Position numbers and translations under genes: made by a program. Source: an uncultured bacterium (lineage in GTDB: Bacteria > Bacillota_I > Bacilli_A > RFN20 > CAG-826). Taken from it: DNA of 64,000 bases. The stretch's first letter is position 1. Each line of letters begins with the position of its first letter. Shown one piece after another: positions 13,241-42,237 of the stretch. The notes under the pieces are model-generated. The model made no database searches, was not told where the DNA came from, and saw only the letters and a list, made by a program, of their open reading frames with translations. The DNA lies in the NCBI GenBank assembly GCA_949285455.1, contig CASDXP010000005.1:2756-66755 (forward strand). The letters are read 5' to 3'.

Positions 13241-13260
13241 TTGATTGGGAATTTGAACCT

Positions 13261-15236: not shown

Positions 15237-15256
15237 GTAGAATAATGCAATTTTTA

Positions 15257-15286
15257 AAAGAAGGATTTATCCTTCTTTTTTTGTGC
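15257..15286 (+). terminator. Rho-independent terminator (10-bp perfect stem AAAGAAGGAT/ATCCTTCTTT + T-run)
   Basis: Perfect inverted repeat followed by TTTTTT immediately after the YccF gene. Confidence 0.7.
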
Positions 15287-15329
15287 AACAATTTTAAAAT
15301 AATTAGATGTCTATGATATAAATATAAAT

Positions 15330-15833
15330 ATGAAAAAAATTAAAAAAATATTTGCCATTTTATTTTCCTTTATCATTTTTACTCTCACTACTTCTTGTGA
15401 TGTTCCTATTCCTCCAAAAGAAATTACTACCGGCTTCTTTGGTGAAAGAGAATATCACGATTACGATTATTATGCAGAAATTTATTTAATGCACGATAGA
15501 TTTTATTTATTATGTTGGGAATATAATCATACTTGGGAAAGCGCATTAGTCACTGGCGGAATTTCTGGAGTAAGGGCTCACCCTGACGATGCTTATTACT
15601 GTCAAAAATATTATCCTTGTCCATTCCCTATTATGAAGGAAATTTTGAATGAGCGGCTTGAAAGCGGAACGAAACCTCCATTTAATGGCTTTCCAGAAGT
15701 TATTATTACTTCTTATCCTGCAACTAGAGATGAGTTAAATTCAGGGGTTACCTCTAGCGGCAGCGATATCGAATTATACAAAAAAATATACGAATATTTT
15801 GATTTGTATTGGAAGTATGGTAGTTATGAATAA
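15330..15833 (+). CDS. Putative lipoprotein (signal peptide + lipobox LTTSC)
   Basis: 167-aa ORF. N-terminus MKKIKKIFAILFSFIIFTLTTSCD. No recognisable catalytic motif. Confidence 0.45.
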   Translation: MKKIKKIFAILFSFIIFTLTTSCDVPIPPKEITTGFFGEREYHDYDYYAEIYLMHDRFYLLCWEYNHTWESALVTGGISGVRAHPDDAYYCQKYYPCPFPIMKEILNERLESGTKPPFNGFPEVIITSYPATRDELNSGVTSSGSDIELYKKIYEYFDLYWKYGSYE

Positions 15834-15834
15834 T

Positions 15835-16542
15835 ATGAAAAGATTAGTGTTGTTTTTAACTTTATTGCTTCCGCTTGCTGGGTGCGAAAACCAAGATCCG
15901 AATCTAGATTATTTATTTGCTTATTATGATGCAATGGCGCATTTAGGTGATGTTGAAGGTGCGTTAGATTTAGATAATAAACAAAGTTTAGTAAATGTTT
16001 CTTCTATTTACACTTTTTCTGATGGCTCACCTGAAGCGCACATTAGACAAGATTATGATTTAGATAATTATTATTATCATGAACTTACCACACAAGGTGA
16101 TTCGTTCATGGAAGTGTGGTTATATAAGAAAAACGAATTAGACATATTGTTCGTCATAAAGACTGATTACGGTCTTAATCGCTACTTCATTAAAGAATGT
16201 TCTAGTGAAGAAGAATTCAATCAAATGTTTGAAAAATATTCTATTAGATATATTCCCTTGATGCTTAGAGATTACGCTAATTATTCTTATGACAAAATTT
16301 ACGAAGTAAGAGAACTTCTAAACAATGAAACAGGTGTTTCTTTTAATAAAGATACGAAACATATTGGTATCAACTATACGTCTTACTCCTATGATTGGCT
16401 ATTTAATGAATTTGGTTTAATGTCTCAATCTTATAGTTGTGAAGAATATAGTTATGAACAAACATTTACTTTTGAAACTTTTGAACAAGTAGAAGCGGAT
16501 TATTCTAATTGTACTGATATAGGAGGGGTATTCTATGATTAA
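15835..16542 (+). CDS. Putative lipoprotein (lipobox LPLAGC)
   Basis: ORF track starts at 15799. ATG at 15835 (MKRLVLFLTLLLPLAGC) follows directly after the upstream stop and gives a canonical lipoprotein signal. Asp/Tyr-rich. Confidence 0.45.
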   Translation: MKRLVLFLTLLLPLAGCENQDPNLDYLFAYYDAMAHLGDVEGALDLDNKQSLVNVSSIYTFSDGSPEAHIRQDYDLDNYYYHELTTQGDSFMEVWLYKKNELDILFVIKTDYGLNRYFIKECSSEEEFNQMFEKYSIRYIPLMLRDYANYSYDKIYEVRELLNNETGVSFNKDTKHIGINYTSYSYDWLFNEFGLMSQSYSCEEYSYEQTFTFETFEQVEADYSNCTDIGGVFYD

Positions 16543-18172
16543 ATTAAAATTTTTATTATGCCCCATCATTTTGCTTAGCCTCATCGGCTGTTCAAATGAA
16601 GATGTGATGAATTTACCTTCTAATATCATAATAGATGAAGGGCAATCGACGATGTACTTAGAAATTGGCGATGCACAAAGATTGAAATGCTATAACGGAG
16701 AAAAAACGATAGACGATATTTCTTGGCATTCATCAAATTATAATGTTGTAAGCGTCGATATTTTTGGTAATATCGAAGCTTTGCATAAAGGAAAAGCCAC
16801 CATTACAGCTTCTACAGAAGGAAGAGATGAACATAATAATAAAACGACACTGGAAACAAAATTACAGATAGTTGTCAATCCATCTTATAATGACATTTTA
16901 GATGAACTCACTAACGACTTAGCGTTTTCCGCAGTTGTAAGAAAAAAAGGTAACAATGCTTCTTACGATGAACGATATTACATTGATACTTACTACTACA
17001 ATCGCGATTATAAGCAATATCATAGACAAGTTTCAAGAGTAAGTTTTTACACTTTATTACGAGACGGAATTTCTTCTTTGAACTATGTTTTTCTCGACGA
17101 ATTTTCTTCTTTCTTCGCAGATGAAAATGGCTATGCAATTACTAATTATTTAGATAGCAATAACGTCTTACATAATGATGTTATTTTAGATGAATTAGGA
17201 AACCCTATCATCTTTGATGAGGTGGCCATCTCACCATTTAAATATCTTAGTTCTGCTAATTTGTATTTTGCTGACGATTATACATTGAAGCTACTAGATT
17301 CAAACGAAAATAAAGTTAATTTTTTCAATGCCATTTATAATTGCAATATTGCTCTTGTTTCAGACATTGTTATTACCTACGATGATTTAGGCTTTCTTGA
17401 TACTTTATATTGTAATGGTGTGACGCTTGATTTGGCTGAATTTGAAATGTTAGGTACATTTACTTCTAGGCACCAGACAGGGGCTCCACGTAGGATTAGT
17501 GAGCCGGTTGAAGAAGAACTTGTCGCATTTTCTGAAGATCAAGAAATAGCGGTTCCAGCCATGTTAGAAGCTTTAAGAAATAAAAATTACACTATTGACA
17601 TCGAAGTGATAGGAGAAGGTGGAGACATCAATCATCAAATGAAAGTTACGCCTGATGGCATTGAAATATTAAAAAATCTTAGCATAGCGGGTAATCCAGA
17701 AACGATTGAAACTTACGCTCAAATAGATGATTTAGGTTTGATGCCAGTAGAAGTCGTTAATGAAAACAATGTCACTTATCTACAAGGTTTAAGCAATGAA
17801 AGTATTGCAAGTGACATCTACACTCTTAATCCAGTTGATTTTAATTCAAATTTATTTTTCTATCGTTATTCAGCCTATACGACAGAAGGTGGCCTTTATG
17901 GTGGTTTAGATAAGGCGAGTGGTCGCTTATTAGGTTTAGATCCACTTTATCCATTCTTCGATGAAGAAAGTAAGATTATCGATATTAATAAAGTTGCTTT
18001 TAATATTAGATTAAATTACGACTATGAGATGGAATATTTTCAATTATTCTACGCGAGTGGGGATGAATATGGTCTTAGTTCGACCGCTAGAAACGTCGGT
18101 TTAAAAATATATAATATTGGAACGACTTCTTTCTCATATAATGGTGCAACTTTTGTCCCTTTTAGTGAATGA
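16535..18172 (+). CDS. Surface lipoprotein with Big_2 (bacterial Ig-like) domain; paralog of 39661..42237
   Basis: 545-aa ORF. Lipobox LIGCSN. Big_2 signature ..ISWHSSNYNVVSVDIFGNIEALHKGKATITAST.. C-terminal region shares NPVDF..NLF, LLGLDP and ITNIGTT motifs with the 858-aa lipoprotein at 39661. Confidence 0.55.
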   Translation: MIKLKFLLCPIILLSLIGCSNEDVMNLPSNIIIDEGQSTMYLEIGDAQRLKCYNGEKTIDDISWHSSNYNVVSVDIFGNIEALHKGKATITASTEGRDEHNNKTTLETKLQIVVNPSYNDILDELTNDLAFSAVVRKKGNNASYDERYYIDTYYYNRDYKQYHRQVSRVSFYTLLRDGISSLNYVFLDEFSSFFADENGYAITNYLDSNNVLHNDVILDELGNPIIFDEVAISPFKYLSSANLYFADDYTLKLLDSNENKVNFFNAIYNCNIALVSDIVITYDDLGFLDTLYCNGVTLDLAEFEMLGTFTSRHQTGAPRRISEPVEEELVAFSEDQEIAVPAMLEALRNKNYTIDIEVIGEGGDINHQMKVTPDGIEILKNLSIAGNPETIETYAQIDDLGLMPVEVVNENNVTYLQGLSNESIASDIYTLNPVDFNSNLFFYRYSAYTTEGGLYGGLDKASGRLLGLDPLYPFFDEESKIIDINKVAFNIRLNYDYEMEYFQLFYASGDEYGLSSTARNVGLKIYNIGTTSFSYNGATFVPFSE

Positions 18173-25235: not shown

Positions 25236-25829
25236 ATGATTGTTACAGTTAATATTTTAAAAAATAAATATCAAAATTATCGAAATGTATTAGATAAGAT
25301 TAAAAGAGAAGTAGATAATGGCACTTTAATACGCATTAAAAATGGCTTATATGAAACCGATAGAAATGTTGAACCATATTACCTTGCTTCTTCTATCGTT
25401 TCTCGTTCTTATCTAAGTTTTGAATGGGCTTTATCTATCTATGGTCTTATCCCTGAAAGAGTCTATACATTTACTTCAGCTTCTTATAACCTAAGAAAAA
25501 ATAAAACGTATGTTAATTACTTCGGCTGTTTTGAATTTTATGATGTACCTAAAAATATTTTTTATGAAGGAGTGAATTCTTATCTAGAAAAAGGTTACAT
25601 TTACAAAATTGCTACAAAAGAGAAAGCTATTTGTGATTGTTTGGCTAAGTGGCCAGTTGTCCATTCTATTAAACAACTTAAAATTTTATTGTTCGAAGAT
25701 AAAAGAATTTATGAAAACGAATTTAATAAATGTGATTTTAAAGCAATGTCGAACCTTGCAAGTTTGTATCATAAGACAAATTTAAAACTTTTAGTTGAAT
25801 TAATAAATAAGGAGTATTTATATGCCTAA
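25236..25829 (+). CDS. abiEi: AbiEi-family antitoxin/transcriptional regulator (type IV TA/abortive infection)
   Basis: 197-aa ORF. 8-nt overlap with the downstream nucleotidyltransferase gene. Sequence pattern ..IKNGLYET..YLSFEWALSIYGL.. is shared with the second copy at 57070. Confidence 0.65.
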   Translation: MIVTVNILKNKYQNYRNVLDKIKREVDNGTLIRIKNGLYETDRNVEPYYLASSIVSRSYLSFEWALSIYGLIPERVYTFTSASYNLRKNKTYVNYFGCFEFYDVPKNIFYEGVNSYLEKGYIYKIATKEKAICDCLAKWPVVHSIKQLKILLFEDKRIYENEFNKCDFKAMSNLASLYHKTNLKLLVELINKEYLYA

Positions 25830-26688
25830 CACACTTGAATTAATGCTTGCAAAATACGATTTAAAATCTCAATTAGACAAAGAAAACGCTATTAAGGAAA
25901 TAATGCAAGAAATTGCTTTAGCAGGCTTAGCAAACACTAATTTTTTCACTAAAGCGGCATTTTATGGAGGAACTTGTCTTCGCATTTTCTACGGTTTAGA
26001 TCGATTTAGCGAAGATTTAGATTTTGCACTTTTAAATAAAGATGAAAATTTCGATTTATCAAATTATTTCGAACCATTAAAAAATGAATTTAACATGTAT
26101 GGTATTAATCTAGATATTGAATATATAACGAAGAAAAATAGTGATGTGGAAAGTGCTTTTATTAGTGCGAATACGGCGACTCTTATGCTTCATTTTTATC
26201 ACGATAATAGCGAAGTAAAAAGTATCATCCATAATCAAAAAATTAAAATTAAATTTGAAATAGATATGAATAATCCACCTGGTGGTAAAGTAGAATTTAG
26301 ATATCAAACTCTACCGGAACCTTACGAAATTCAAATATTCGATGAATCTAGTTTATTTGCAGGAAAGATACATGCTATTTTATGTCGTAATTATCTTCAT
26401 CGTGTGAAAGGGCGCGATTATTTTGATTATCTATTTTTTATTTCTAGTGGCACGAAATTTAATCTTAAATATTTAGAAAATAAACTAAAAAATACTGGCG
26501 GGATAATCGATTCAAAAGAAGCGTTAACTTTAGATAAAGTGAAAGAACTTCTTTACGCCAAGTTTAGCCATGTCGATTATCCTTTAATGGTTGAAGATGT
26601 GTCTAAATTTATTCCTAATAAAGAACAATTGAAAACTTATAAAAAAGAATTATTTTTATCTACCTTAAATAAATTGGAATGCACGTAA
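25822..26688 (+). CDS. abiEii: AbiEii-family nucleotidyltransferase toxin (DUF1814)
   Basis: 288-aa ORF. Nucleotidyltransferase motif GGTCLRIFYGLDRFSEDLDF (GS/GG..DxD). Translationally coupled to abiEi. Confidence 0.7.
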   Translation: MPNTLELMLAKYDLKSQLDKENAIKEIMQEIALAGLANTNFFTKAAFYGGTCLRIFYGLDRFSEDLDFALLNKDENFDLSNYFEPLKNEFNMYGINLDIEYITKKNSDVESAFISANTATLMLHFYHDNSEVKSIIHNQKIKIKFEIDMNNPPGGKVEFRYQTLPEPYEIQIFDESSLFAGKIHAILCRNYLHRVKGRDYFDYLFFISSGTKFNLKYLENKLKNTGGIIDSKEALTLDKVKELLYAKFSHVDYPLMVEDVSKFIPNKEQLKTYKKELFLSTLNKLECT

Positions 26689-26741
26689 TTTTTCATTATT
26701 TCTTTATTGTTAAATAAAGTGTGATTATTTATCATAAAAAT

Positions 26742-27836
26742 ATGAAAAGGAAATTACTTCTACTCACAGCATTAATATTGCCGTTAGCAAGTTGCGATTT
26801 CTTTAAGCAATTTTTGCCTGACCCACCTTCACCTCCTAATCCCCCAGTGGAAGGTGATCAATTAAATATAATCGCCCTTGAGATGAAAGGAAGATATGGC
26901 GATAGTCTCATCATTAAATATAACGATTACGACATCTTAGTGGATGCTGGAACGGAAAGCGATGAAGATACAGTACAAGAGGCTTTAGTAAAATATGTGA
27001 CAGATAAAACAATCGATTTATTAATTCTCACTCATCTTCATAGTGACCACATCGGGGCGATGCAAGATGTAAGCTTTTTTAAATCGATTGGAATGAATGT
27101 TAAAACTTTCATCGATCCTGATACTTTACCAACTTCTAAAACGGCAGAAAATTATGTTGATATGCGCGAAGCTTTCGTTAGCGAGGGCAGCGATTACATT
27201 TCGTATTATGATTTAATTAATATTACAGAATATAAAAGAAAGATTTATTTGAGCGAAGAAGATAATATTTATCTAGAGTTCTTTGATACAGGCGCGGTAG
27301 CGAAACCAAAAGAAGAAGTAAGTGATTTAAATTCTTCGAGCATCGCTTGTGTTTTAAATTATTCTAATAGTAAAGTTTTCATGGCTGGTGATTTACCATC
27401 TAGCGAAGAAGAAGCTTTAATAAATAGTATGGATGCTTCGCAAAGAAATTATTTTAAAGAAGAAAATCAAGTGTTATATAAGACGTGTCATCACGGAAGT
27501 ATTACTTCCAATGGCGATGAACTTTTAACATATGTTAAACCAGATACCATTTTTTCTATGTCTGGTATTTTATCAAGCAATCAAGAAAACGCACCTTTAG
27601 AAGACCAACATCCTTACATAGCCGCTATTAACCGTATGGCTAAATATTCTAAAGATATTTATTGGACTTCCATTAACGGAACGACAGTTTTTTCTTCTAA
27701 AGGCGATATATTTACTAAAACATTCGCTGGCCGCACGGTGGATTATTACCTCGATGGTAAGATAGTAAGTAGAGAAGAAGAAAAAGATATTACTTTTTTA
27801 AATAGTGCTTGGTATAAACAATTAAGTCAGACATAA
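26742..27836 (+). CDS. Metallo-beta-lactamase-fold hydrolase lipoprotein (ComEC C-terminal-domain-like)
   Basis: Lipobox LPLASC. HxHxDH motif LTHLHSDHIG. ATG 26742 preferred (MKRKLLLLTALILPLASC). Confidence 0.55.
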   Translation: MKRKLLLLTALILPLASCDFFKQFLPDPPSPPNPPVEGDQLNIIALEMKGRYGDSLIIKYNDYDILVDAGTESDEDTVQEALVKYVTDKTIDLLILTHLHSDHIGAMQDVSFFKSIGMNVKTFIDPDTLPTSKTAENYVDMREAFVSEGSDYISYYDLINITEYKRKIYLSEEDNIYLEFFDTGAVAKPKEEVSDLNSSSIACVLNYSNSKVFMAGDLPSSEEEALINSMDASQRNYFKEENQVLYKTCHHGSITSNGDELLTYVKPDTIFSMSGILSSNQENAPLEDQHPYIAAINRMAKYSKDIYWTSINGTTVFSSKGDIFTKTFAGRTVDYYLDGKIVSREEEKDITFLNSAWYKQLSQT

Positions 27837-28066
27837 ATAAGACTTATAGTCTCAAAGTTGTTTTCATAGCTATTGCTTATTACTTTTTTATTTGCTTAGA
27901 TATATTTTATATCCGCATGTGAGCCTTATATTCGTAAATTAATAATTAAAAATACACATCATTTTTAATAATATTTTCTTTAAATTTGTGAAAAACTCAC
28001 AAAAACAAAAATAATATATGTAAAAATAAGGAATATTTTTCTATAATATATTAGGAGGTAAAAAAT

Positions 28067-29248
28067 ATGTTATTACAATTTTCAACGGTGAATTTTAAAT
28101 CATTTAAAAACGAAGTAACTTTAAATTTGGTAGCTAACAATTTTAAAGAACACGAAGAACGCATTATTTATTTTAATAATGAAAGAGTGCTGCCTCTCGT
28201 CGGTGTTTTTGGTGCGAATGCTTCAGGTAAAAGCAATTTATTAGAAGCTTTTTTCTTCGCTGTCAATTTGATAAGAAATTCTTTATCTTCTCAAACATCA
28301 GAAGAACTTTTTAATATAAAGCCTTTCATGTTTGATGATTCTAAAGATAATTCGCCTTCATCCTTCGATTTTATTTTTGTTAAAGATGGGGTGAAATATG
28401 AATATGGTTTTGCTATTGATAAGAAGTGTGTTATTGAAGAATATTTATATGTATATAAAAGCCAAAAACCATCTTTAGTTTTTGAAAGAAAAAATGTCAA
28501 TGAATATCATTTTAGAGATTATGCTCGTCACGAATTATCGCCGATTGTGTCAAGAACTCTGCCTAATAAATTGTTTTTATCGGTCGCCGCAAATTTCAAC
28601 GCCAAACTTGTCAAAGCTTGTTTTGATTGGTTTAAGAACGATATCAATTTCTATTTTGAACAAGCGATTGAGGAAAAGGCAATTCTAGATGCTATTAAAG
28701 ATGAAAAGATGAATAAATTTATCGCTGATTTTTTAAATCACGCTGATATCAATATATCAAATATTAAATGGCAAATTGCTAAAATAAATAATCAACAAAA
28801 GATTAATTTTAAGACCATGCATCTCATCAGAGCTAATGGGGAATTAAAAGAGTTTTCCTTAGATATAAAAGATGAATCACACGGCACACAAAAATTGCTT
28901 TCATACGCGCCTTTGTTTTATAAAGCGCTAAACTTTGGCGGAGTGGTCGTCATCGATGAGATAGATAATGCTATCCACGTTGAGCTCATGAAATACATCA
29001 TCTCGTTATTTAACGACCCGTTAATAAACAAAACCTCTGCCCAACTTATTTTCAACGCTCAAAATGCCCTCTTGTTAGATTTAGATATTATGCGTCGTGA
29101 TCAAATTTGTTTTGTCGAAAAAAACTTCCTTACTGGTGTTTCTTCTCTTTATTCGCTCGATGAATTTAAGGTGCGCCTGGATGATAAAGTACTAAAAAAA
29201 TATCTAGAAGGAAGATATGGAGCATTACCGAACATCATTTATGAATGA
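28067..29248 (+). CDS. AAA_15/AAA_21-type ATPase (AbiLi/RloA-like abortive-infection ATPase)
   Basis: 393-aa ORF. Walker A GANASGKSNLLEA. Walker B VVIDEIDNAIH. ABC/SMC-like architecture. Stop overlaps the downstream start (ATGAATGA). Confidence 0.6.
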   Translation: MLLQFSTVNFKSFKNEVTLNLVANNFKEHEERIIYFNNERVLPLVGVFGANASGKSNLLEAFFFAVNLIRNSLSSQTSEELFNIKPFMFDDSKDNSPSSFDFIFVKDGVKYEYGFAIDKKCVIEEYLYVYKSQKPSLVFERKNVNEYHFRDYARHELSPIVSRTLPNKLFLSVAANFNAKLVKACFDWFKNDINFYFEQAIEEKAILDAIKDEKMNKFIADFLNHADINISNIKWQIAKINNQQKINFKTMHLIRANGELKEFSLDIKDESHGTQKLLSYAPLFYKALNFGGVVVIDEIDNAIHVELMKYIISLFNDPLINKTSAQLIFNAQNALLLDLDIMRRDQICFVEKNFLTGVSSLYSLDEFKVRLDDKVLKKYLEGRYGALPNIIYE

Positions 29249-29864
29249 AATTATAGTTGGACAAAAGAGGCGAAAATTAAATTCTCGTCTCGATAAAAAA
29301 CTTATCCTCCTAGGTGTAGAAGGAAAAAATAGCACCGAAGCGTCCTATTTTCTTAATTTTAATCGCCTGCAAAATACTTATCGTATCAAAATCGCTAAGG
29401 GGCGAGATACGCATCTATTAAGTATAATAGATGAATTAAATTTGTGCCGTAAAGACACCGATTTTAAAAAAGGAGATTTAATGTATTGTATTTTCGACTT
29501 AGATAATGATCCATATAAAATAAAAGTAGCGGATGAGTTGATAAAAAAATATCGTAAGCAAGACATTATTTTTCTTTATTCTAATCCTTGTTTTGAATTA
29601 TTTTTTCTTTGGCATTTTATTTATTCGACGAAGCCTTATTCAAATAGTCGTAAAGTTATTACTGATTTAAAAAAACACATGCCATATTACGAAAAGAACA
29701 TTAATTGTTTTCACTCATTATTTTCTAAAATTGAAATAGGGATTAGAAACAGTGAAAACATAATGTTTTATCATAGTAGGCATAAACAGTTTGGTATTTA
29801 TTTAAATCCAGTAACTAAAGTTCATGTATTAGTAAAATTATTATTTTCTTTTATACAACGTTAA
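29241..29864 (+). CDS. RloB-like (TOPRIM-like) protein, AbiLii-like partner of the upstream ATPase
   Basis: N-terminal LILLGVEGKNSTEASYF matches the RloB signature (..CEGxKTExxYF). ATG 29241 overlaps the ATPase stop. The ORF track start at 29217 is also possible. Confidence 0.55.
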   Translation: MNEIIVGQKRRKLNSRLDKKLILLGVEGKNSTEASYFLNFNRLQNTYRIKIAKGRDTHLLSIIDELNLCRKDTDFKKGDLMYCIFDLDNDPYKIKVADELIKKYRKQDIIFLYSNPCFELFFLWHFIYSTKPYSNSRKVITDLKKHMPYYEKNINCFHSLFSKIEIGIRNSENIMFYHSRHKQFGIYLNPVTKVHVLVKLLFSFIQR

Positions 29865-30741: not shown

Positions 30742-31299
30742 CTATAACGTCAAAGTAAAAACAAAAGCAAATATAATTGCGTTAAGCGACGCTAAAATTG
30801 AATAAATTTCGATAGGAATACTTTTAATTTTTTCTTCATTTTGTTCTTTTTCCTCATTTTCTTCTTCATCACTTTCAATCGATTCTAAAGGTTTAGAAAT
30901 AGTTCGCCCTCTTCTTTTAAAATGTTTCATTCTTGTTTGCTGATATAAATATCTTGCTAGCCAAATTATCGTTACCGTAACAAAAAGCAAAACTATAAAA
31001 CTTGGAATATCTAGTGGTTCGTTGATATCAAGATTTAATTTGTAAGTATATTCAACGTAAGCAAAAAGGATGATATCTATGATTAAAATTATGATAGAAA
31101 TGGGAAGCATATAGGTATATTCTCTTTTAGTCATTTTCTTTCTAATTTGATCTTTAGTTAACGCTCCTACTTTATTATCGATATGAAGCCATTTCTTCTT
31201 AAATATTTCTATCAATATAGAGGGATATAAAATCTGAAATAAACTTAATCCTATAATTGCGTATAAATATGAATACATTGATGATTGCCTACCCTTCAA
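30742..31299 (-). CDS. Small polytopic membrane protein, paralog of 31303..31848 (orphan immunity-protein candidate)
   Basis: 185-aa ORF, 3-4 predicted TM helices. N-terminal ~55 aa are closely similar to the neighbouring gene, then diverge. Acidic C-terminal tail. Confidence 0.4.
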   Translation of the reverse strand: MKGRQSSMYSYLYAIIGLSLFQILYPSILIEIFKKKWLHIDNKVGALTKDQIRKKMTKREYTYMLPISIIILIIDIILFAYVEYTYKLNLDINEPLDIPSFIVLLFVTVTIIWLARYLYQQTRMKHFKRRGRTISKPLESIESDEEENEEKEQNEEKIKSIPIEIYSILASLNAIIFAFVFTLTL

Positions 31300-31302
31300 C
31301 GA

Positions 31303-31848
31303 TTAATACAATATTAGAATTGGTATGAGGATGAAACTATTGAACAAAATAATTGAAGTATATAGTGTCATTGCAGCATTTTTGCCTGATTCATTCAAAA
31401 CCCATTTCATTCTTTTCCATCTCTCTCGTGCAGTATGCCGCCCATGGGCTAAATAACCCCCATCGACGGCTTTTATATTTCTTCCAAATATTTTTTTTCT
31501 TGCTTCGTAATAAACGTCAATAATTGCAGAAGCAAGAACAGCAAAGACAAAAAGCAATATTATTATGGAAGCAGCTACTATTAATGGCTTATCCATTGTA
31601 ATTGTGTATTGAAAAGCACAAAAACAATAAATTAGAAGAGTAGCGTTTATTATTAGAATTGGCAAAGAAACTAGAGTTAGAAAAATATGTTCCCTTTTTC
31701 CCATTTTATTTCTTACTTCTCTTTTAGATAAAGTTCCATTTTCATTATCGATATGGAACCATCGTTTTTTAAAAATAGTTATCAACAAAATGGGGAATAA
31801 AATTAGAAATAAACTTAACCCTATAATTGTATATAAATATGGATACAT
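31303..31848 (-). CDS. Small polytopic membrane protein immediately downstream of the RHS toxin gene (cognate immunity-protein candidate)
   Basis: 181-aa ORF beginning 22 nt after the RHS stop on the same strand. Hydrophobic helices. Confidence 0.4.
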   Translation of the reverse strand: MYPYLYTIIGLSLFLILFPILLITIFKKRWFHIDNENGTLSKREVRNKMGKREHIFLTLVSLPILIINATLLIYCFCAFQYTITMDKPLIVAASIIILLFVFAVLASAIIDVYYEARKKIFGRNIKAVDGGYLAHGRHTARERWKRMKWVLNESGKNAAMTLYTSIILFNSFILIPILILY

Positions 31849-31869
31849 TAGATTGCCTACCTGTTTCTA

Positions 31870-34800
31870 TTAATTTTTATTATTTTCTATTATTCCATAC
31901 ATTGATGAATTAAGGAAATCGCTTATTAAATTTTCGAATTTGTCTGAAATTATTTCTAGAAATTTAGGAGTTATAGATGTGCCTAACCTTGCTATTAGCC
32001 TCCCAAATATTTTATCCATTCCATTAGTGAGCTCTCCAAATATGTTAGTACTTATTCCGCTTACAACTCCGTTCATAAAAGAAGTAAAGAGATCCATATC
32101 AGTACCATACGTTAAAAAATCAGTAACTATTGAACCAATAATTTCGCCTGCAAAGGTAGCAACCACATCTACAATAAGCCTGGTGATTTTATAATATATA
32201 TGATTCAAACTAACAGCAGCAAATAATCCGCTTATAAATCCGCTTACAAATGCACCTAAATATTCTTGCCATGATGACCATTTCCATCTAGAAAAATCTA
32301 ATTGGTAATTGATTAGGTTCATTATGATATCTGTGACAAATAATGTAGCGACGCTTATTGCTGCAAATATTATTCCATATAGTAGTGCGGTTAATATCCA
32401 AATCCTTCCGCTTGAATCAACGTACTTAATAGGATTGTTTCTACAATAGATGTATAAATTTAAACCATTAAGTTGAGTTTTAGTTTCATCTAAGATTGAT
32501 AATTCATCACGTGAAATAAATCTAGCGAAGAAGGGACTATAATATCTTGCATTTAGATAATATAAATTAGATTCAGCGTCATAATAATAACTACGATATC
32601 TAAATGGGTTAATATTACCTATATTTTCTGAAGTGTGATTAATAACCTCGTGATTACCAAAAGCATCATATTCATAACTTGCAACTAGAGTTAAATCATC
32701 TTGCTTATAAATGTTTATAATGTCACCAAAAATATTTTTCTCATAAATGTAACTAGTGCCATTATGAGTAAAACCTATTAACGATTTATTCAAGTAATGG
32801 TATTCAATATCTTTCGAACTAGATTTTTCTCTTAAAATAAGATTATTTGATAAATAATATGTTGTTTTTTCACCATTTATTGTTTTTGAAGTTCTAATAC
32901 CGTTTAAATTATAAGTGTAACTAACATTATCAAAATTAATTAAATGCGATTCATTATTCCAAACGAAGGTATGATTATCATATGAAGTAAGTCTTCCTAA
33001 GGCATCGAAAGTTACATCTTTATCATTGACTCTTCTTAAGATATCTTTATTTGATGAAACGTTATAATAGAAGTTATCTACATGCGTGGAATCTAATAAT
33101 ATTTCATCTTCGTGAGTGTAATCATAAGTTGTTCTATTAACTAAATTACCATTTGCATCATAACTATACGTTATCGTTTTATTTAGTTCTTTATTATCTT
33201 CTCTAATTAAACGATCAACTTTATCGTATTTATAATAAGTATTACCAATATCACTTTTTACTTTGGTGACGTTAAGAAGTTTATCGTAATCGTAAGAATA
33301 ACGATGATAAACATTACTTCCAATAATATTTTCTAGCAATTTAATATTTGTAAGAGTCTTTTTGTCAGTGGTGAAATAATTTAAATTCTGTCTTAATAAA
33401 ACATTAGAATTAGTGTCCTTTATTTCGTTATATGTAAGACGACCAAAAACATCAGATTTTAAATTCGCTAAATAGTTAGATGAAGTGATAGAAGTTAATC
33501 TTAAGGTTTTACTATCATAAGAATAACTAGAAGATATAGTCTTATCGCCTAGATTGATACTTTCACTATCCAAACAATTTTTATTAGCGAAAGAATAAGT
33601 GTGAATAACATTAAGTTCATCGTAAGCATCAATTTCTTTAGTTAATCTATCGTAATCATCGTAAGTATATGAAATCGATTCTTCACCTTTTTCAATTTTT
33701 ATCAATCTTTTCTTATCATCATAAGTATAGTTAATAGTGGAATTATCGCTTCTCGTCGATTTTATTAAATTACTATCTTTATCATAAATTGAAGAAATCG
33801 TGTAGTTTAACGGACTAATCGTAGTGACTATCTTTTCCCCGTTAGTGACTAAATCGTCGCTGTAATTGCTAGTGTAGGCAAATGAATATAAAGACGATTC
33901 TCCAATTTTTATGTGGGTTTTACGGTGCTTATAATCATAAGAATAAGTATAAATTATTCCATCTTGCTCCATGGAAGTTAATAAATCCGATGTATAGTTA
34001 AATTTGATTGGATTAATTAAACCATCATCGTTATAAGAAAGATCCACTAGTTTTTGTGAATAGATATCGTAGCCTAATGATAATGTAGAATTATTTGGCC
34101 CGATGATAGTAGTAGGATATCTTGAATTAGAAAGATAATTAATCTGATAATCATCCTCATTTGTGAGTCTTCCTAATTCATCATAAACACTAGTTTTTTC
34201 TTGTTTTAAAGAAGGGGAATCTAAATTATATTGATAAGTTTTGTTCTTAAAACCTAATTCATCATAATTTATTTCTTTAACGTTATTTAAATTATCTATC
34301 GTACGAATTAATCGATTGTAATTATCGTAATCGTATTTCTTTTGAGCTGTAACACCGTAGATATCGTTAGAGACTTCCCTTACCAGATTTGAGTTTCTAT
34401 ATTCGTAATCTATTACGTTAGATGGGCTTAATTTTCTTAGTAAATGTAAGTCGTCATCATAAATATTAATTTCACCAATGACTTCATAAATTTTCACTTC
34501 TAAGTTAGTAAAGAAAGAAGAAGGAATTTCTAAATCAGAAGTAATTTTGATCGTTACCTTACTAACTAAATTATTGAAGAAAACCGGAATAGCTATTTGA
34601 GGGGTGATTCTATCGTAATGAATAGTGTAACTCGCTAGGTCGCCGGTCGCTATTATTTCAATCGATAATTCATTTTCATTATTGATATCAAAATTTGTTA
34701 TATTTGAAAAATCTATGATCGTGGCGGCAAGCAAATATTTTTTTGCAAAATCAATTTCACTTTTTAAAATTTGTAAAGTAAAACTACCATTTGAATAACT

Positions 34801-37800
34801 AACGTTTGTGTAGTTTTTAGTTGCAAGTAAATTTCTTTCTTCATAGCTTACATCGAATACGATATTTCTTTCGTTATAACTTTTATAAGAGGAAGAAGAA
34901 GTGAGCAAATCTAAATCTATGTTTTTTCGATAGATGATGTCACCGTTTTTATTGACGTAAACTGTCGTTTTATTATTGTTTATATTATCTTCAGCGGTAA
35001 TTTCAAAATTGTTCGCATTGACTCCCACATCTTCGATACTAGAATTGTCTACAATTTTATTTGTGATAAGGCCATCTTCAATACGAAGAGTTTTATTCGT
35101 GATATTGTATCCTTTAAATTTCATTTCGCTCCAAATGAAATTAATCTTTTCAGAGTTTGAATTCTCGACGGAGGTAAGATTTTTATAAGTATCGTAGGTA
35201 AATGTTAGTTTTTCCTCGTTTCCTTTATAGCCTTTAAAAATAATTTCATCTTGACCATCGCCTAATGTAAGAAGTCTAGTCATCTTAAATTTAGTTTCGA
35301 TTAGATTAGGATCGATGATGGAAGATAGAAGACCATTTTCATCGTAATTGATAGTAATTGTTTGCACAGATGAAGCAATTTCTACAAGGTTATCGTCGAT
35401 GTATTTAAGAGTTATTTCGTTTTCATTTAAATCGGAAATATAAATTAATCTTCCATAGTAATCAAATCCAAAGATTAAACCCTCTTCGCTTAAAAGGAAA
35501 TCTTGTGCATTATCTTTTTGCGCTAAGACTTCATTAGCCTTCAAAGTTCTATAATAATCGATATCTTTTTTATATCGATCGATTCTTTCTAATATGTCTT
35601 TGATAGAAAGTTTAATCGATTCAATTTGATGATTGTAACTTACGCTTGTGGAATTGAATGAATTAATTTGTGAGGCAGTTATTTGTTCTTCATTATTTAT
35701 CAGTTCACTAAAAACAGAATTCATCGTTTCCATTTGATTAGCGGTTTCTTCTTCCATTTGTTTTAAAGATAATAAGTATTGTTGAGCTTGTTTTGTTAAA
35801 TCTTTTAAAGTCGATTCATATTGTTCAATGGTACTTTCGATAGAAACTATATTTTCATTTTCATAGTAATCAGGTTTAATGTAAGTTTCATCGATATTTT
35901 TTGCATAATAATGATTTAACTCTAACTCGTTCGTAGCAATAGAATAAGCTTCCTTATTGTTAGTATTTAATTTGTAATAATATTTTGGTATGAGCGCAAA
36001 GTATTGTTCTTCTTTTATAGCGATAGAACAATTAATTAAGATAGGATTAACTTTTGTATTAGAGGATTTTAAATAATAACTGCCATTCTTATATTCGACT
36101 TCATTAGGAAAGTAGACAGCATATTGTAAAATTGCCTCATTCTGAGCATAAGTAACATCATTGAAATACATTGATAATAAAGAACGAACTTCGCTTTCAT
36201 CGTCAATTCTCGCCTTTGCTTGACCAATAAAACTAGTAATTTTAATTTGTCCGTTTTCATCTACTACCTTATCAATTGTTTCTAGCGGATCATCGTAAGT
36301 GAAGTGGTGGGTTAGTTTGACTTCTTTTTTCGAAGCCATATTTAAACTGTTCGCAGAGGAAATATAAGTAAGCCCATTAGAACTTATGACTTCGTAAGTT
36401 ACTTCGTGGACGTTACCGTGTCCATCTTTAAATTTATATTTTTGATCGCTATCTAGATAGACACTTTTATTGCTCACTAGATGATAAGAGCCGTCATTAT
36501 TTAAGTAGTACCATTTTTCGTAGAATGTATGAATATTTCCATTTCCATCAATGTAATGAATTTCATTTTGTAGTGCATCGATGTTATTTTGCTTACTTTT
36601 AATTAATCGAGAAGATAAGTTAAAAGCCCAACCTTTTGGAAGCCCCTTAATTTTATCTGCTGCTCTAAATAAATTTCTCGAATCATAATAAAAATTAAGA
36701 TTTACGCTCAATGCGTTAGAAGCGATGCTCGTCAGTGGAATTTCATAATGCAAATTACTTGTATATAAATTAGCCCTAAATGAAGAATTGTGACTAAAAT
36801 TATGCGAGATAATTACATTATTTTTATCATCACCAATACTTTGATATTTTGAAGTTATATTGGGGGTATTCTCACTATCGAAGCTAGTTTCATTAGTGAT
36901 AGCGATAAAAGGATTATTTTCTTTATTGTCAGCGACATATTCTAACGTTAATGTAATTGGTTCAATCGTTACATTTTCTTCTTTACGCTTAACGTCATCG
37001 TTAACGAAAGACGAAATATCGATTCGTAATAAATTATGAGAAGAATTGATAGGAACATTAGCGATGATAGTTTCACCATAAGACACTTTTATGTAATCGA
37101 GATCACTCACATTATCGCTAGCGTCAAATTTGATGTTAATAAACGATAAAAAATGTTCATTGCCTCTATCTTTTAATAATGAGGTAATTTCATCCATGTT
37201 GAGATTAATTTTTGTTAAGTTATTAACGCTATCTATGTAACCGCATATAGTTTTACCAGGATAGACATAATTATCGTTCGAATCTTTTATTTCTATAAGC
37301 GAAACATAGTTATATCTAAAATAAAGTTTAAGATTGACGCTTTGATTGGTGCTTAGATAAGCACTATTTGCTGTAATTATGATAGTTTTAGAAGATGTAA
37401 GATTATTAACTACTTGCACGTCAAAATCTTCACACGATATTTCCCCATCATTAGTCTCTAAATATGGTTCTAATATAAATCCATTATCAGTTCCAAAGAA
37501 ATTAACTTTTTTATCATCAACCTCCATTAATAGCGATGTAACAAAGCCAAGTGAGACTACACTATCACCAGTTTTTAAAGGTATTGTTAACAAGCACCCA
37601 TCGTTCGTAGATATAAGTGTATAGGCGGGACCAGGAATTGTGCCGCTTGTAGTTATTGTAGTTGGTCCATTGAAATAAACTATGGGAGATGGTCTGCTAG
37701 CAGTAGCAGAACTATTAACTCCATAAATTTGTTTATATATAGAGCACGTTAATGAAACAGAATCTTTATTTAAACTAAATGAAAAAGAATTATGTATAGT

Positions 37801-38106
37801 AGAACCATCACTAGCGATATAGGGAGTAGATATTTTTACATTTTTATTCAATGCTGAAATTGTTCGACTTTGTCCAGATAAGTTTTTGGCTAGAAGAAAA
37901 CTATTTTGAATAGGGACAACACTATTAGAAATATTAATAAAAGAAACTGGATGAGTGTATAATTTTATGTCAAGTTCATTAATTTCTTTAGAATAAATAC
38001 TAGATAATGAAAGTTTTAAGTCCTTATTTTTGTAATCGCCCATATAAGGAATATTCGCGTGATTCTTTTTTAAAAAGATGTCTTTAAAATTAAATTTATT
38101 TTGCAT
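31870..38106 (-). CDS. RHS/YD-repeat polymorphic toxin (2078 aa) with hydrophobic C-terminal extension
   Basis: Very long ORF. Many YD repeats (YTYDDKKRL, YTYDDYDRLTKE, YDANGNLVNRTTYDY). Terminal core ends in the ..NNPIKYVDSSGR.. motif, followed by a 177-aa hydrophobic tail. No N-terminal signal peptide seen. Confidence 0.85.
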   Translation of the reverse strand: MQNKFNFKDIFLKKNHANIPYMGDYKNKDLKLSLSSIYSKEINELDIKLYTHPVSFINISNSVVPIQNSFLLAKNLSGQSRTISALNKNVKISTPYIASDGSTIHNSFSFSLNKDSVSLTCSIYKQIYGVNSSATASRPSPIVYFNGPTTITTSGTIPGPAYTLISTNDGCLLTIPLKTGDSVVSLGFVTSLLMEVDDKKVNFFGTDNGFILEPYLETNDGEISCEDFDVQVVNNLTSSKTIIITANSAYLSTNQSVNLKLYFRYNYVSLIEIKDSNDNYVYPGKTICGYIDSVNNLTKINLNMDEITSLLKDRGNEHFLSFINIKFDASDNVSDLDYIKVSYGETIIANVPINSSHNLLRIDISSFVNDDVKRKEENVTIEPITLTLEYVADNKENNPFIAITNETSFDSENTPNITSKYQSIGDDKNNVIISHNFSHNSSFRANLYTSNLHYEIPLTSIASNALSVNLNFYYDSRNLFRAADKIKGLPKGWAFNLSSRLIKSKQNNIDALQNEIHYIDGNGNIHTFYEKWYYLNNDGSYHLVSNKSVYLDSDQKYKFKDGHGNVHEVTYEVISSNGLTYISSANSLNMASKKEVKLTHHFTYDDPLETIDKVVDENGQIKITSFIGQAKARIDDESEVRSLLSMYFNDVTYAQNEAILQYAVYFPNEVEYKNGSYYLKSSNTKVNPILINCSIAIKEEQYFALIPKYYYKLNTNNKEAYSIATNELELNHYYAKNIDETYIKPDYYENENIVSIESTIEQYESTLKDLTKQAQQYLLSLKQMEEETANQMETMNSVFSELINNEEQITASQINSFNSTSVSYNHQIESIKLSIKDILERIDRYKKDIDYYRTLKANEVLAQKDNAQDFLLSEEGLIFGFDYYGRLIYISDLNENEITLKYIDDNLVEIASSVQTITINYDENGLLSSIIDPNLIETKFKMTRLLTLGDGQDEIIFKGYKGNEEKLTFTYDTYKNLTSVENSNSEKINFIWSEMKFKGYNITNKTLRIEDGLITNKIVDNSSIEDVGVNANNFEITAEDNINNNKTTVYVNKNGDIIYRKNIDLDLLTSSSSYKSYNERNIVFDVSYEERNLLATKNYTNVSYSNGSFTLQILKSEIDFAKKYLLAATIIDFSNITNFDINNENELSIEIIATGDLASYTIHYDRITPQIAIPVFFNNLVSKVTIKITSDLEIPSSFFTNLEVKIYEVIGEINIYDDDLHLLRKLSPSNVIDYEYRNSNLVREVSNDIYGVTAQKKYDYDNYNRLIRTIDNLNNVKEINYDELGFKNKTYQYNLDSPSLKQEKTSVYDELGRLTNEDDYQINYLSNSRYPTTIIGPNNSTLSLGYDIYSQKLVDLSYNDDGLINPIKFNYTSDLLTSMEQDGIIYTYSYDYKHRKTHIKIGESSLYSFAYTSNYSDDLVTNGEKIVTTISPLNYTISSIYDKDSNLIKSTRSDNSTINYTYDDKKRLIKIEKGEESISYTYDDYDRLTKEIDAYDELNVIHTYSFANKNCLDSESINLGDKTISSSYSYDSKTLRLTSITSSNYLANLKSDVFGRLTYNEIKDTNSNVLLRQNLNYFTTDKKTLTNIKLLENIIGSNVYHRYSYDYDKLLNVTKVKSDIGNTYYKYDKVDRLIREDNKELNKTITYSYDANGNLVNRTTYDYTHEDEILLDSTHVDNFYYNVSSNKDILRRVNDKDVTFDALGRLTSYDNHTFVWNNESHLINFDNVSYTYNLNGIRTSKTINGEKTTYYLSNNLILREKSSSKDIEYHYLNKSLIGFTHNGTSYIYEKNIFGDIINIYKQDDLTLVASYEYDAFGNHEVINHTSENIGNINPFRYRSYYYDAESNLYYLNARYYSPFFARFISRDELSILDETKTQLNGLNLYIYCRNNPIKYVDSSGRIWILTALLYGIIFAAISVATLFVTDIIMNLINYQLDFSRWKWSSWQEYLGAFVSGFISGLFAAVSLNHIYYKITRLIVDVVATFAGEIIGSIVTDFLTYGTDMDLFTSFMNGVVSGISTNIFGELTNGMDKIFGRLIARLGTSITPKFLEIISDKFENLISDFLNSSMYGIIENNKN

Positions 38107-38259
38107 GTTTCCCCTTTCTTATATGATAAATGATTTTATTGATAAAATGAATGAAAATAGGATTAAGTTAAATGTTTTTAATCATTTATGAAGTAATTAT
38201 TTACTTCTTTAGTTATAATGTAGTTGTTTTAAAAGAAAAGAAAGGTAGAAATAAATAAT

Positions 38260-39493: not shown

Positions 39494-39519
39494 ACGATTT
39501 AGGCTTTTTCTTATATTTT
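39494..39519 (+). terminator. Rho-independent terminator after the flavodiiron gene
   Basis: AGCCTAAA/TTTAGGCT 8-bp stem followed by TTTTT. Confidence 0.65.
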
Positions 39520-39660
39520 AGAAATTCATATTATTAGTATACGTGTATGCATACTGTACACACGCAAAAAACTTGTTAAAAAATTTTTAAAAAAACTATT
39601 GCAATTAAACGCTTAAACGCATATCTTAACGCATATATAGTAATAGAAAGGAGATTACAC

Positions 39661-42237
39661 ATGAATTTAAAGAAATTTGTTCTATTACCTCTAGCTGCTT
39701 TAGTTCTTGCTAGCTGTGGTCCTAATGTCGTTCCTCCCGAAGGCATTTCTGTCGCCGCAGCTGAAACGACTTTAGAGATGGGCGATACGATGACTCTCAC
39801 CGCCACTCTTACGCCTGCAGATGCTGAAGCAGATATCACTTGGTCTTCAAGTGACACCGAAGTTGCCACTGTCGATGCGACAGGTACAGTTACAGCTGTT
39901 GGTTTAGGCGAAGTTGAAATTACGGCGACCGTTGTCAGCGATGACATCATTCTCCGCGATTCCGTTACTTTAGCCGTCAATCCTGATGTGGAAGCAGTGC
40001 TTGCAAGTATCGCAACTGAAATTGCTGTTACTGGTACCGCAAGTCTTGTTGCTCCAGGAGGAAGTCTAGGTTCCTTCGCTTTTGATACTTACCTTAACGT
40101 TAACCAAGGTGAAATGCAATTGTATTGGTCTTCCGAAGGTTCCGTCTATAGCTATTTCGCTGATGAAGAAGGTTATCTTGTCGATTACGTTTTAAATAAT
40201 CATAATGAAGTACAAGTAATTTCTTATACTTCTGGTGGTCAACCAGTCCCCGCTGAAAACTACATCACTTATTCCTTCGGCGCGATCACCGCTTCTGAAG
40301 TGGTAGTTACCACTCCAACCCAATTAGATGTCGCAATTGGTGAAGATCATGGTGCAGTAGATTTAGCAGTCGAATTATCTGGTTACATCTGCGACGTCAC
40401 CGATACTGTTACGATCAATCTTAATAAAGATGGTAGCGTTGCATCTCTTACTGTCGTCGGTCACGGTGTAGCTGAACTTACTGGTGGTTCTACTACCGAT
40501 TACGTTAATACAGTTACCGCAACTGTTACGACCAAAGAAGCCATCGGCGCTCCAAATAAAGCTACACCAATGCCAGAATTAACTGGTGATGATGCCGCTA
40601 TTGTCAATTCATTCCTTACCGGTTTAGAAAATGAAAACTACACATTAGACATCGTCGATACTGGTGAAAGTATTGGTGAAGTTGTCGTCACTGACGACGG
40701 CGTCATTGCCGATGGTACAGTTTTTGCTTTAACGACTGATGGTGTCTATGAAGTTACAGTTGATGAAGAAGCTGGTACGATGACTGCTACTAGCGCAGAA
40801 GCTATTGCTGCTGCAGTTTCAGAACTTCTCAATCCAGTTGATTTCTCACCAAACTTATTTATTCCACAAGGTAATAATGTCTATAAATTAGCTGGTGGTT
40901 TAACTGATAATGTATTACTTGGTCTTGATCCAGCCTTAGTCTTCATTGGTGACTATTATTTAATTCCAAGTATCAATTCAGTTGAAATTACTTTAACCGT
41001 CGAAGGTGCGACCGTTACAGGTGCAACTCTCTCTTATACCTATGATTATTATGGATTAGGTTGGATTATGGGTGATTTAGTCATTACTATCACTAATATT
41101 GGTACGACTGCTTTCCCATATGCTGACTTAGAATTCGTCGAATACGTTCCACCAACTGCTTGGAGTGATGTTACTGGTGACGAAAATTGGTATCAAACTG
41201 CTACTGAAGCTTTAGGCGAAGAAGTTGATAACGTTCCATTCATCGTAGCTGATTGGTATGGTTATGCTGACACTGAAGATTCTGAATTTGGTGTTCAAGC
41301 TTCATTTACTTCTCAAACTGACGCTGTTAATTTAGTTAATTCTTATCTTGCTATTCTTGCGGCTGCTGGTTGGACCGATAGTGGCTTAGTAGATCCTTAT
41401 GGTTCCGTTGCCTACACTAATGGAACGAGCGCAATCTATGTTTCCACAGATGCTTGGTCAAGCGGTTATGACTATATCACCGATATTATCTTCTGGTCCG
41501 TCGATAGCTTAGCACCTGCTGTTACTCAGTGGAGTGATCTTGACGCTGCTTGGGCTGAAGGAATTAACACTACTACCGGTGGCGATATCGATACCGTTCC
41601 ATTCACGGACTTAGGTTGGCAATTAATGAGTGGAAACTACGCTATTGGTGGTGTTACTACAGATGTATATGATGCCTCTTACAATGCTTATTATTTAGAA
41701 TATGCACTCACAGAAGCTGGTTGGACGCAAACTGGATTAATTGATCCAGCAACCGAAAATGAAGTGTGGACATTAGAAGGTAATCCAATTGCTGTATCCG
41801 TTTATCTAGTTACAGTTACTATGACAGATGGTAGCACAGGCTACGCCGTCAAAGTTGATTTCCTTGCTGCTAGCAGTTGTGTTATGCCGCCTGCTGCCAC
41901 TTCTTGGTCTGAATATGATGCTGATTTTGCCGCTTCTATGGAAGCAGCAGGAATTGATGTTGATCTTGTTCCATTCTTAGACGCTGAATGGGCATGCGAT
42001 GCATCTACATCTTCCGCTTACGTCTACACTGATCCAACAACCGCACAAGAAATTTATGACGCTTACGTCGCTCTTTTAGAAGAAGCTGGTTGGACCGCTG
42101 CTGGTGAAGCTGATGAAAGCGGCATCACAACCTTCACTAACCCAGATACAAACGTTACAATTGGTGTTCAATTAGACGTTAGAACTACTTCTGTTGCTTA
42201 CGTTAACTTATACTGGGGCACTAGTGCTGCTGAATAA
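39661..42237 (+). CDS. Large Ala/Thr/Gly/Asp-rich surface lipoprotein: Big_2 domain + shared middle domain + three ~100-aa C-terminal repeats
   Basis: 858-aa ORF. Lipobox LASCG. Big_2 signature ..ITWSSSDTEVATVDATGTVTAVGLGEVEITA.. Three repeats of the pattern W-S-D/E...VPF...Y..LE.AGWT..G. Nucleotide composition is visibly more G+C-rich than its surroundings. Confidence 0.6.
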   Translation: MNLKKFVLLPLAALVLASCGPNVVPPEGISVAAAETTLEMGDTMTLTATLTPADAEADITWSSSDTEVATVDATGTVTAVGLGEVEITATVVSDDIILRDSVTLAVNPDVEAVLASIATEIAVTGTASLVAPGGSLGSFAFDTYLNVNQGEMQLYWSSEGSVYSYFADEEGYLVDYVLNNHNEVQVISYTSGGQPVPAENYITYSFGAITASEVVVTTPTQLDVAIGEDHGAVDLAVELSGYICDVTDTVTINLNKDGSVASLTVVGHGVAELTGGSTTDYVNTVTATVTTKEAIGAPNKATPMPELTGDDAAIVNSFLTGLENENYTLDIVDTGESIGEVVVTDDGVIADGTVFALTTDGVYEVTVDEEAGTMTATSAEAIAAAVSELLNPVDFSPNLFIPQGNNVYKLAGGLTDNVLLGLDPALVFIGDYYLIPSINSVEITLTVEGATVTGATLSYTYDYYGLGWIMGDLVITITNIGTTAFPYADLEFVEYVPPTAWSDVTGDENWYQTATEALGEEVDNVPFIVADWYGYADTEDSEFGVQASFTSQTDAVNLVNSYLAILAAAGWTDSGLVDPYGSVAYTNGTSAIYVSTDAWSSGYDYITDIIFWSVDSLAPAVTQWSDLDAAWAEGINTTTGGDIDTVPFTDLGWQLMSGNYAIGGVTTDVYDASYNAYYLEYALTEAGWTQTGLIDPATENEVWTLEGNPIAVSVYLVTVTMTDGSTGYAVKVDFLAASSCVMPPAATSWSEYDADFAASMEAAGIDVDLVPFLDAEWACDASTSSAYVYTDPTTAQEIYDAYVALLEEAGWTAAGEADESGITTFTNPDTNVTIGVQLDVRTTSVAYVNLYWGTSAAE

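Follow-up and report, generated by a model that had tools for sequence, protein, structure and literature searches.

Orphan modules in classical rhs (rearrangement hotspot) and contact-dependent growth inhibition (CDI) loci lie directly downstream of the main rhs gene and consist of a piece of the core together with a full alternative tip. In the Tse5 (RhsP1) system of Pseudomonas aeruginosa, an Rhs protein carries a hydrophobic, helical tip that forms pores and depolarises membranes, and the gene for its membrane immunity protein Tsi5, a single protein with two transmembrane (TM) helices, is found directly downstream (González-Magaña et al. 2022, PMC9637101; 2023, PMC10684867). Behind TspA, a polymorphic membrane-depolarising toxin of Staphylococcus aureus, there are arrays of tandem paralogous genes for polytopic immunity proteins, TsaI (DUF443), which share one conserved block (the first ~75 amino acids (aa), with two TM helices) and are variable in the remainder (Garrett et al. 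2022, PMC9484751). The authors suggested that the shared block is in contact with a partner that is itself conserved, and that the remainder changes with the toxin; the arrays also contain toxin-gene fragments (PMC9484751). Protection of S. aureus ST398 against EsxX, an LXG glycine-zipper toxin, requires both of two polytopic membrane proteins, ExiC and ExiD; genomes or loci that lack the toxin may also have the two genes, as an orphan pair (Alcock et al. 2025, PMC12744356). Here we describe two small genes, designated A and B, which follow an rhs gene in a stretch of 64,000 nucleotides (nt) from an uncultured bacterium (GCA_949285455.1, contig CASDXP010000005.1, positions 2,756 to 66,755), referred to below as the window.

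It is very probable that these tandem paralogues are part of an RHS toxin-immunity system, and on balance we think it probable that the pair acts as a two-gene immunity module of the inner membrane, directed against the C-terminal tip of the upstream RHS protein. An earlier reading of the window (the original prediction) had taken them for a cognate immunity gene plus an orphan immunity gene retained from a displaced tip. This should be replaced by a fixed two-gene module composed of a variable A and a conserved B. The rhs-A-B locus adds to a known arrangement a new example that is restricted to one species, and it is not a new kind of system. Its resemblance to ExiCD, TsaI and Tse5-Tsi5 appears to be functional and architectural only, and membership of any of these families fails on sequence.

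Organisation of the rhs-A-B locus

The elements of the locus are as follows.

38121-38180, minus strand: rhs 5' untranslated region (5'UTR) or promoter-proximal region (in related genomes fused directly to the last rhs codons before A'B' at a second locus)
31870-38106, minus strand: RHS/YD-repeat protein, 2078 aa (open reading frame (ORF); TIGR03696 and YD repeats; PF05593)
31870-32406, minus strand: RHS tip, 178 aa, residues 1901-2078 plus stop (hydropathy, motifs, alignment of six alleles)
31849-31869, minus strand: rhs-A gap with the equivalent ribosome-binding region AGGTAGGCAATCTA ahead of A (DNA alignment)
31303-31848, minus strand: gene A, 181 aa, four predicted TM helices, the allele-variable member (ORF)
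31279-31302, minus strand: A-B spacer of 24 nt with the duplicated ribosome-binding region (DNA alignment)
30742-31278, minus strand: gene B, 178 aa from the ATG at 31278, four predicted TM helices, the conserved member (ORF)

The two tandem, co-directional ORFs singled out by the original prediction were confirmed on the minus strand at the coordinates given there, directly after the gene for the 2078-aa RHS protein. The gene order is rhs, A, B, with A the first gene after rhs; the gaps are 21 nt (rhs-A) and 24 nt (A-B), and a gene for a ZIP-family transporter follows 81 nt past B on the same strand. DNA alignment revealed that the ribosome-binding region GGTAGGCAATC is also duplicated between A and B, and GGGTAGGCAATCATCA precedes the ATG of B within the A-B spacer. 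The second ORF had been given as 185 aa, which corresponds to the mechanical ORF starting with TTG at 31299. B probably starts at the ATG at 31278 instead, giving 178 aa, because an in-frame stop codon is found three codons upstream of this ATG in L009 and L019 (L-numbers, L001 to L022, denote contigs carrying A/B homologues that were compared with the window). Scans for promoters and terminators, both around A/B and ahead of rhs, yielded sites no more frequently than in shuffled sequence.

Paralogy and predicted topology of A and B

With compositional adjustment, BLASTP aligned A and B at 43% identity over 129 aa (E 2e-27). Similarity of composition alone is thereby excluded, and the two genes are true paralogues. 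The first 54 residues, which had been described as almost identical, share 35 of 54 positions (65%). Nor do the proteins diverge completely thereafter, as had been supposed: the alignment continues at ~27% identity up to about residue 129, and the layout of TM helices is identical along the whole length, to the C-terminus. That both proteins are polytopic was borne out, since four TM helices are predicted in each, at about residues 5-26, 55-75, 89-107 and 160-178. Two K/R-rich loops fall on the same side of the membrane, which implies an N-out/C-out topology. The acidic low-complexity run of B, ESIESDEEENEEKEQNEEK, is not a tail but is internal; it lies in loop 2, between TM3 and TM4, and a hydrophobic helix follows it.

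An AlphaFold2 (AF2) model of A, built with nine sequences, consists of four long helices (predicted local distance difference test, pLDDT, 76). Foldseek found no match to this model in the PDB at E <= 0.001 and returned generic helical bundles only; sequence and profile searches of A/B against the PDB gave no match either, and neither protein matched anything above noise in Pfam, NCBIfam, PADLOC or PHROGs.

The N-terminal module common to A and B comprises TM1 and the basic loop 1, FKKRWFHIDN...KREY (aa 1-54). A conserved stretch of ~55 aa at the N-terminus is the same pattern as the ~75-aa block of TsaI. There are clear differences, however: neither A nor B matches DUF443 (Pfam, E <= 0.1), TsaI has five TM helices whereas four are predicted in A and B, TsaI occurs as 2-16 variable copies whereas A and B are fixed at two distinct lineages, and the toxin carrier here is an RHS protein. 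In codons 1-54 the comparison of A with B gave dS (synonymous divergence) of 0.36-1.0 with dN (nonsynonymous divergence) of about 0.2, values which indicate that the N-terminal similarity is maintained by selection. Gene conversion was considered as the source of the common N-terminus and was rejected for codons 21-54, where dS is 0.6-1.2; for codons 1-20 it is possible, dS being as low as 0.09 in one locus.

The RHS protein and its tip

The RHS protein matches the Rhs-associated core family TIGR03696 at aa 1813-1900 (E 1.9e-19) and the YD-repeat families TIGR01643 and PF05593. The core ends at aa 1900 (...NNPIKYVDSSG) with a PxxxxDxxG-type motif, and the C-terminal domain starts directly after it. 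Rhs proteins in the PDB, Tse5 included, can be aligned to it only as far as about aa 1906. The first ~1200 residues match no family, and neither a signal peptide nor a trafficking domain such as PAAR or LXG is present in them. Within this region, weak coiled-coil-type matches only were seen at about aa 750-860.

The tip is hydrophobic, with three predicted membrane segments and three GxxxG motifs (GFISG, GEIIG and GVVSG), and the alignment of six alleles revealed the invariant motif NLINYQLDFSRWKWSSWQEYLGAFVSGFI. From these features the tip is presumed to be a membrane-inserting toxin domain. It matched no Pfam family and no known toxin or enzymatic family, and phmmer and profile searches of the PDB gave no match, Tse5 included. 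The only database match of the tip profile was a 98-aa rhs remnant on L014, which is described below. A single-sequence search with the tip found no match and missed even the parent RHS protein, probably owing to a word-index limit for long proteins. The single-sequence AF2 model of the tip is all-alpha, with a pLDDT of 48.6, too poor for a fold search.

A hydrophobic, helical tip borne by an Rhs protein and followed by a gene for a small membrane protein recalls Tse5-Tsi5, where toxicity is established; here it is what we infer. The tip is, however, without similarity to the C-terminal domain of Tse5, and Tse5 (PDB 8cp6) matches the Rhs core at aa 1832-1893 only. Moreover Tsi5 is a single protein with two TM helices, and Tse5 has a PAAR-like N-terminus and uses a type VI secretion system, whereas no such domain was found in the RHS protein described here.

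Variation between strains

Between strains the RHS core shows 85-96% aa identity (dS 0.16, dN/dS 0.16), compared with 55-78% for the tip (dS 0.69, dN/dS 0.34). Identity among A proteins is 52-69%. Their N-terminal part (aa 1-55) has dS of 0.53 and dN/dS of 0.12, and aa 100-183 have dS of 0.88 and dN/dS of about 0.5; in the C-terminal half, identity between strains is 40-58% when the near-identical alleles of L015, L005 and L014 are left aside. B shows 73-97% identity (dS 0.38-0.58, dN/dS 0.22-0.33). In a sliding-window comparison the hypervariable block stretched from mid-tip to where A ends, and B was not part of it. Within A the hypervariable segments are TM3 (54% mean identity), loop 2 (42%) and TM4, TM1 and loop 1 (aa 1-54) being conserved; the most conserved segments of B are TM2 and TM4 (92% and 95% mean identity). 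Because all dN/dS values are below 1, both A and B are functional and maintained under purifying selection. The tip-A-B module as a whole consists of allelic lineages that are old, joined to a core that is young. Among the few alleles available, each of the five tip types on long contigs is accompanied by its own A type; on L019 a window-type tip centre is paired with a different A.

An island of nucleotide identity lies within A at about 31720-31785 of the window (A codons ~22-42; columns 1590-1650 of the sliding-window alignment). It is 75-98% identical between alleles, and 90-98% in most of them, with flanks of 63-85%. The island may serve to anchor recombination when cassettes are exchanged; alternatively, strong constraint on the loop FKKRWFHIDNENG may be all that it reflects.

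It might be argued that A protects against the resident tip, as its cognate immunity protein, and that B confers independent immunity to a different tip, ancestral or belonging to other strains, and acts alone. A and B are paralogues of equal architecture, their alleles have recombined independently, and TsaI arrays are a known case of tandem paralogous membrane immunity genes that act independently of each other (PMC9484751). We nevertheless consider this explanation unlikely. No tip remnant is present between A and B, the 24-nt spacer recurs in every locus, and B is never absent or expanded. No RHS tip was found with a B-type gene directly after it. All B alleles belong to a single conserved lineage, with 73-97% identity within it and 34-47% identity to any A, and because this lineage is separate no B is the A of another strain. 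In addition, a profile hidden Markov model (HMM) of A and B found only an A cluster and a B cluster among 1.84 billion representatives.

The same observations count against B as an orphan immunity gene from a displaced tip: the 24-nt spacer holds no tip fragment, B is present in 8/8 loci, and its alleles have a lineage of their own. B is, furthermore, more conserved than A, which is the opposite of what would be expected for a displaced polymorphic cassette. Orphan copies and a C-terminal toxin fragment, which the original prediction had proposed to look for, were sought with tblastn; the 64-kb window contains no further copy of A, B or the tip, and there is no toxin fragment between A and B. 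The orphan modules proper are instead those found at a second chromosomal site, each of which has both A and B.

Two chromosomal sites and rhs-deleted copies

At site 1 the order is flavodiiron-type gene, rhs, A, B, ZIP, in synteny with the window (L001-4, L009, L011-13, L015-17 and L021-22). The second site is empty in the window:

55225-55271, no strand assigned: empty site 2 (blastn of L005 and L019 against the window; gene contexts)

It is flanked there by a MatE gene (53757-55169, minus) and a RibD_C gene (55394-56107, plus). In L019 this site is occupied by rhs (at least 816 aa on the contig) followed by A and B, so that the architecture of the rhs-A-B operon is constant at both chromosomal sites. 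All 8 of the 8 clean loci have one A and one B, never more or fewer. The spacer between them is 24 nt in five RHS-linked loci, and coordinates give the same 24-nt spacing in 8/8.

In L005-L008 and L014, site 2 carries a pair, A'B', without an intact rhs (a delta-rhs-A'B' module). In L005, 60 nt (9892-9951) are 100% identical to 38180-38121 of the window, the rhs 5'UTR; the last nine rhs codons follow without a gap, and after them A'B' (the equivalent of 31899-30743 in the window). L014 has kept, as a fusion ORF of 98 aa, the 5' region together with 17 codons from the N-terminal end of rhs and 48 from its C-terminal end. Thus two different rhs deletions occurred at site 2, and the rhs promoter and A'B' were kept both times. 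The modules of L005 and L014 are best described as deletion derivatives of the operon that appear to be toxin-dead and immunity-retaining. Among RHS-linked A proteins, that of another strain, L015, shows 86-88% identity to the orphan A'. According to the cluster tables, in which contigs were matched by length, the L005 contig (198,886 bp) apparently also has an intact rhs with a different A type. In L014 an insertion sequence (IS) element with an rve integrase and a methyltransferase/HNH fragment (13666-15927) lie a few kb downstream of the delta-rhs module; they are absent from L005.

Homologues without an RHS neighbour, which the original prediction had regarded as evidence against immunity, therefore do exist. 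They do not contradict it, however, since rhs remnants are present beside them, and the result favours the immunity idea. Support for A and B as immunity candidates for the RHS tip is circumstantial: A follows a polymorphic tip, the hypervariable block runs from mid-tip to the end of A, and there are rhs-deleted A'B' copies. The intact rhs-A-B at two sites, the two rhs deletions with promoter and A'B', and the empty site form a natural series within the population sampled, illustrating how toxin operons give rise to 'immunity-only' modules.

An alternative is that A and B are not immunity proteins at all but holin-like proteins, or export or insertion helpers, which release or load the RHS protein. 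The RHS protein does lack a recognisable secretion signal, and A and B, as small proteins with several TM helices and charged loops, are superficially holin-like. On the other hand, no holin family in PHROGs or Pfam matches either of them, and there is no reason why an export helper should be hypervariable along with the tip. A'B' were twice kept under the rhs promoter after the loss of rhs, with an A' type that differs from that of the intact rhs locus of the genome. Because the promoter and both small genes were kept while the toxin was discarded, immunity would be expected here and an export helper would not. We therefore regard the helper explanation as improbable.

Site 2 of L005 and L014 resembles classical rhs/CDI orphans in that rhs fragments are followed by immunity-type genes. 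Unlike them, it is the whole operon in a second copy elsewhere on the chromosome, in which rhs has lost its interior and the promoter is kept. The A-B pair within a single locus is outside the definition of an orphan.

A close parallel to the pair is ExiC/ExiD: both here and there the two genes are always together, and both occur also as toxin-less pairs. Joint requirement has been demonstrated for ExiC/ExiD; for A and B strict co-occurrence is what is observed. No sequence relation is detectable, the A/B HMM matching its own species only (the ExiCD sequences were not compared explicitly). A and B differ from ExiC/ExiD in being adjacent paralogues, and the toxin is an RHS tip and not an LXG protein. 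A soluble cytoplasmic immunity pair of the ExiAB type is likewise missing at rhs-A-B, and none would be expected if the RHS shell shields the tip, as has been argued for Tse5 (PMC12744356, discussion).

L020 (ERZ16268278 scaffold_34246, 2.8 kb) was left out of the comparison because it is probably chimeric: the reading frame of B continues there into that of a foreign acidic protein, and the genes flanking the A-B segment look unrelated (RlmH-like, MerR). The chimera would have arisen in metagenome assembly.

Distribution of the family

A search with A of 5.8 billion protein clusters matched eight clusters, all of 180-183 aa. The profile HMM of A and B, run at full HMMER sensitivity against the 1.84 billion cluster representatives, identified the A lineage and the B lineage as its two clusters. 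The family is encoded in one of 185,579 species genomes, the metagenome-assembled genome GCA_949297055.1 of an uncultured bacterium, and no relatives of A/B were found in Joint Genome Institute (JGI) metagenome contigs, viral contigs or plasmids. Judging from these cluster, genome, metagenome, viral and plasmid searches, the rhs-tip-A-B system appears to be confined to one AT-rich (about 30% GC) uncultured species. The window itself contains no rRNA gene.

Such a narrow distribution, together with the fact that no homologue of known function was found for A or B, could be taken to mean that they are lineage-specific membrane proteins of unrelated function which hitchhike beside rhs and owe their variability to relaxed constraint. 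This is highly improbable. The dN/dS ratio is below 1 in every segment; in the N-terminal module, where dS is nevertheless about 0.5, it is 0.12. In addition, the rhs-A-B architecture is constant at two chromosomal sites, and A'B' were selectively kept upon rhs loss.

A possible mode of action

If A and B are a two-gene immunity module, the system might work in the following way. In the producer the RHS shell would enclose and shield the tip, a hydrophobic all-helical domain with GxxxG motifs. After its delivery to a sister cell or a competitor, the tip would insert into the cytoplasmic membrane and dissipate the membrane potential. A and B, as four-helix proteins with N-out/C-out topology, would neutralise it within the membrane. 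A would be the allele-specific component, whose TM3, loop 2 and TM4 region diversifies along with the tip. B would be not a leftover orphan but a fixed, conserved paralogous partner that probably works with A, either by forming a hetero-oligomer with it or by holding a conserved target or a conserved part of the tip. The TM1 and loop 1 module shared by A and B is a likely common interface for a partner, for a receptor or for membrane insertion. A more far-reaching version is that A and B constitute an obligate heteromeric complex of ancient paralogues, with A as the hypervariable specificity subunit and B as a conserved scaffold or receptor-masking subunit, directed against an undescribed family of RHS-borne helical depolarising toxins, the whole being an orphan family of a single species. 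We regard this version as possible but doubtful.

Several observations do not sit easily with the two-gene immunity module. The sample comprises only about six allele types. Scans with Pfam and NCBIfam found no recognisable signal peptide, trafficking or delivery domain in the RHS protein as a whole. Loop 2, where A varies most, is predicted to lie in the cytoplasm, which is not an obvious meeting place for a toxin arriving from outside. Alleles of A and B have been uncoupled by recombination: between the window and L009, B is 97% identical and A 56%, a pattern that would not favour tight co-evolution of A and B. Nor is a given type of tip strictly tied to one type of A, as seen in L019 (ERZ17292900 k87_6954889, 1-3560; a 5-kb metagenome contig). 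Its tip centre and B are 100% identical to those of the window, and the last ~60 codons of the tip and all of A belong to a different allele (56% identity between the two A proteins). This is either a swap of a 'tip tail plus A' cassette or an assembly chimera between paralogous loci. If L019 is not chimeric, tip and A are exchanged by recombination more readily than is compatible with strictly cognate pairs.

If the two-gene module is real, it adds a new membrane immunity family, unrelated in sequence to those described, and a new membrane-active RHS tip, both from an AT-rich bacterium known from metagenomes only. Interbacterial antagonism has been little studied in such uncultured, AT-rich bacteria. 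The fixed A/B pair would then join ExiCD as a second and independent instance of two-component membrane immunity, and a variable A with a conserved B would be easy to swap experimentally. The general picture of polymorphic toxin systems would be unchanged.

Neighbouring genes

An anti-phage defence cluster (25236-29864 of the window) adjoins the RHS locus. It contains the following genes.

25236-26688: AbiEi/AbiEii (family scans)
26721-27836: metallo-beta-lactamase-fold protein (the orthologue in related loci has a precomputed Pfam match to Anti-Pycsar Apyc1)
28067-29864: AbiLi/AbiLii pair, AAA_21 plus RloB (family scans)

The AbiL pair is an insertion of ~2 kb in the window compared with L001, L009, L011 and L015, in which the ZIP gene abuts the gene for the lactamase-fold protein. 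Paralogous genes for AAA_14/DUF4143 ATPases are found at 3766-5124 and 50168-51463 of the window, and L005 has three of them in a row beside MatE (12826-17154). Across the gene for an 858-aa surface protein with Big_2 domains, at 39500-42237 of the window, the GC content is about 0.41, up from about 0.30. Identity to L001 in this region is about 84%, below that of the neighbouring genes, suggesting that it may be another variable surface locus.

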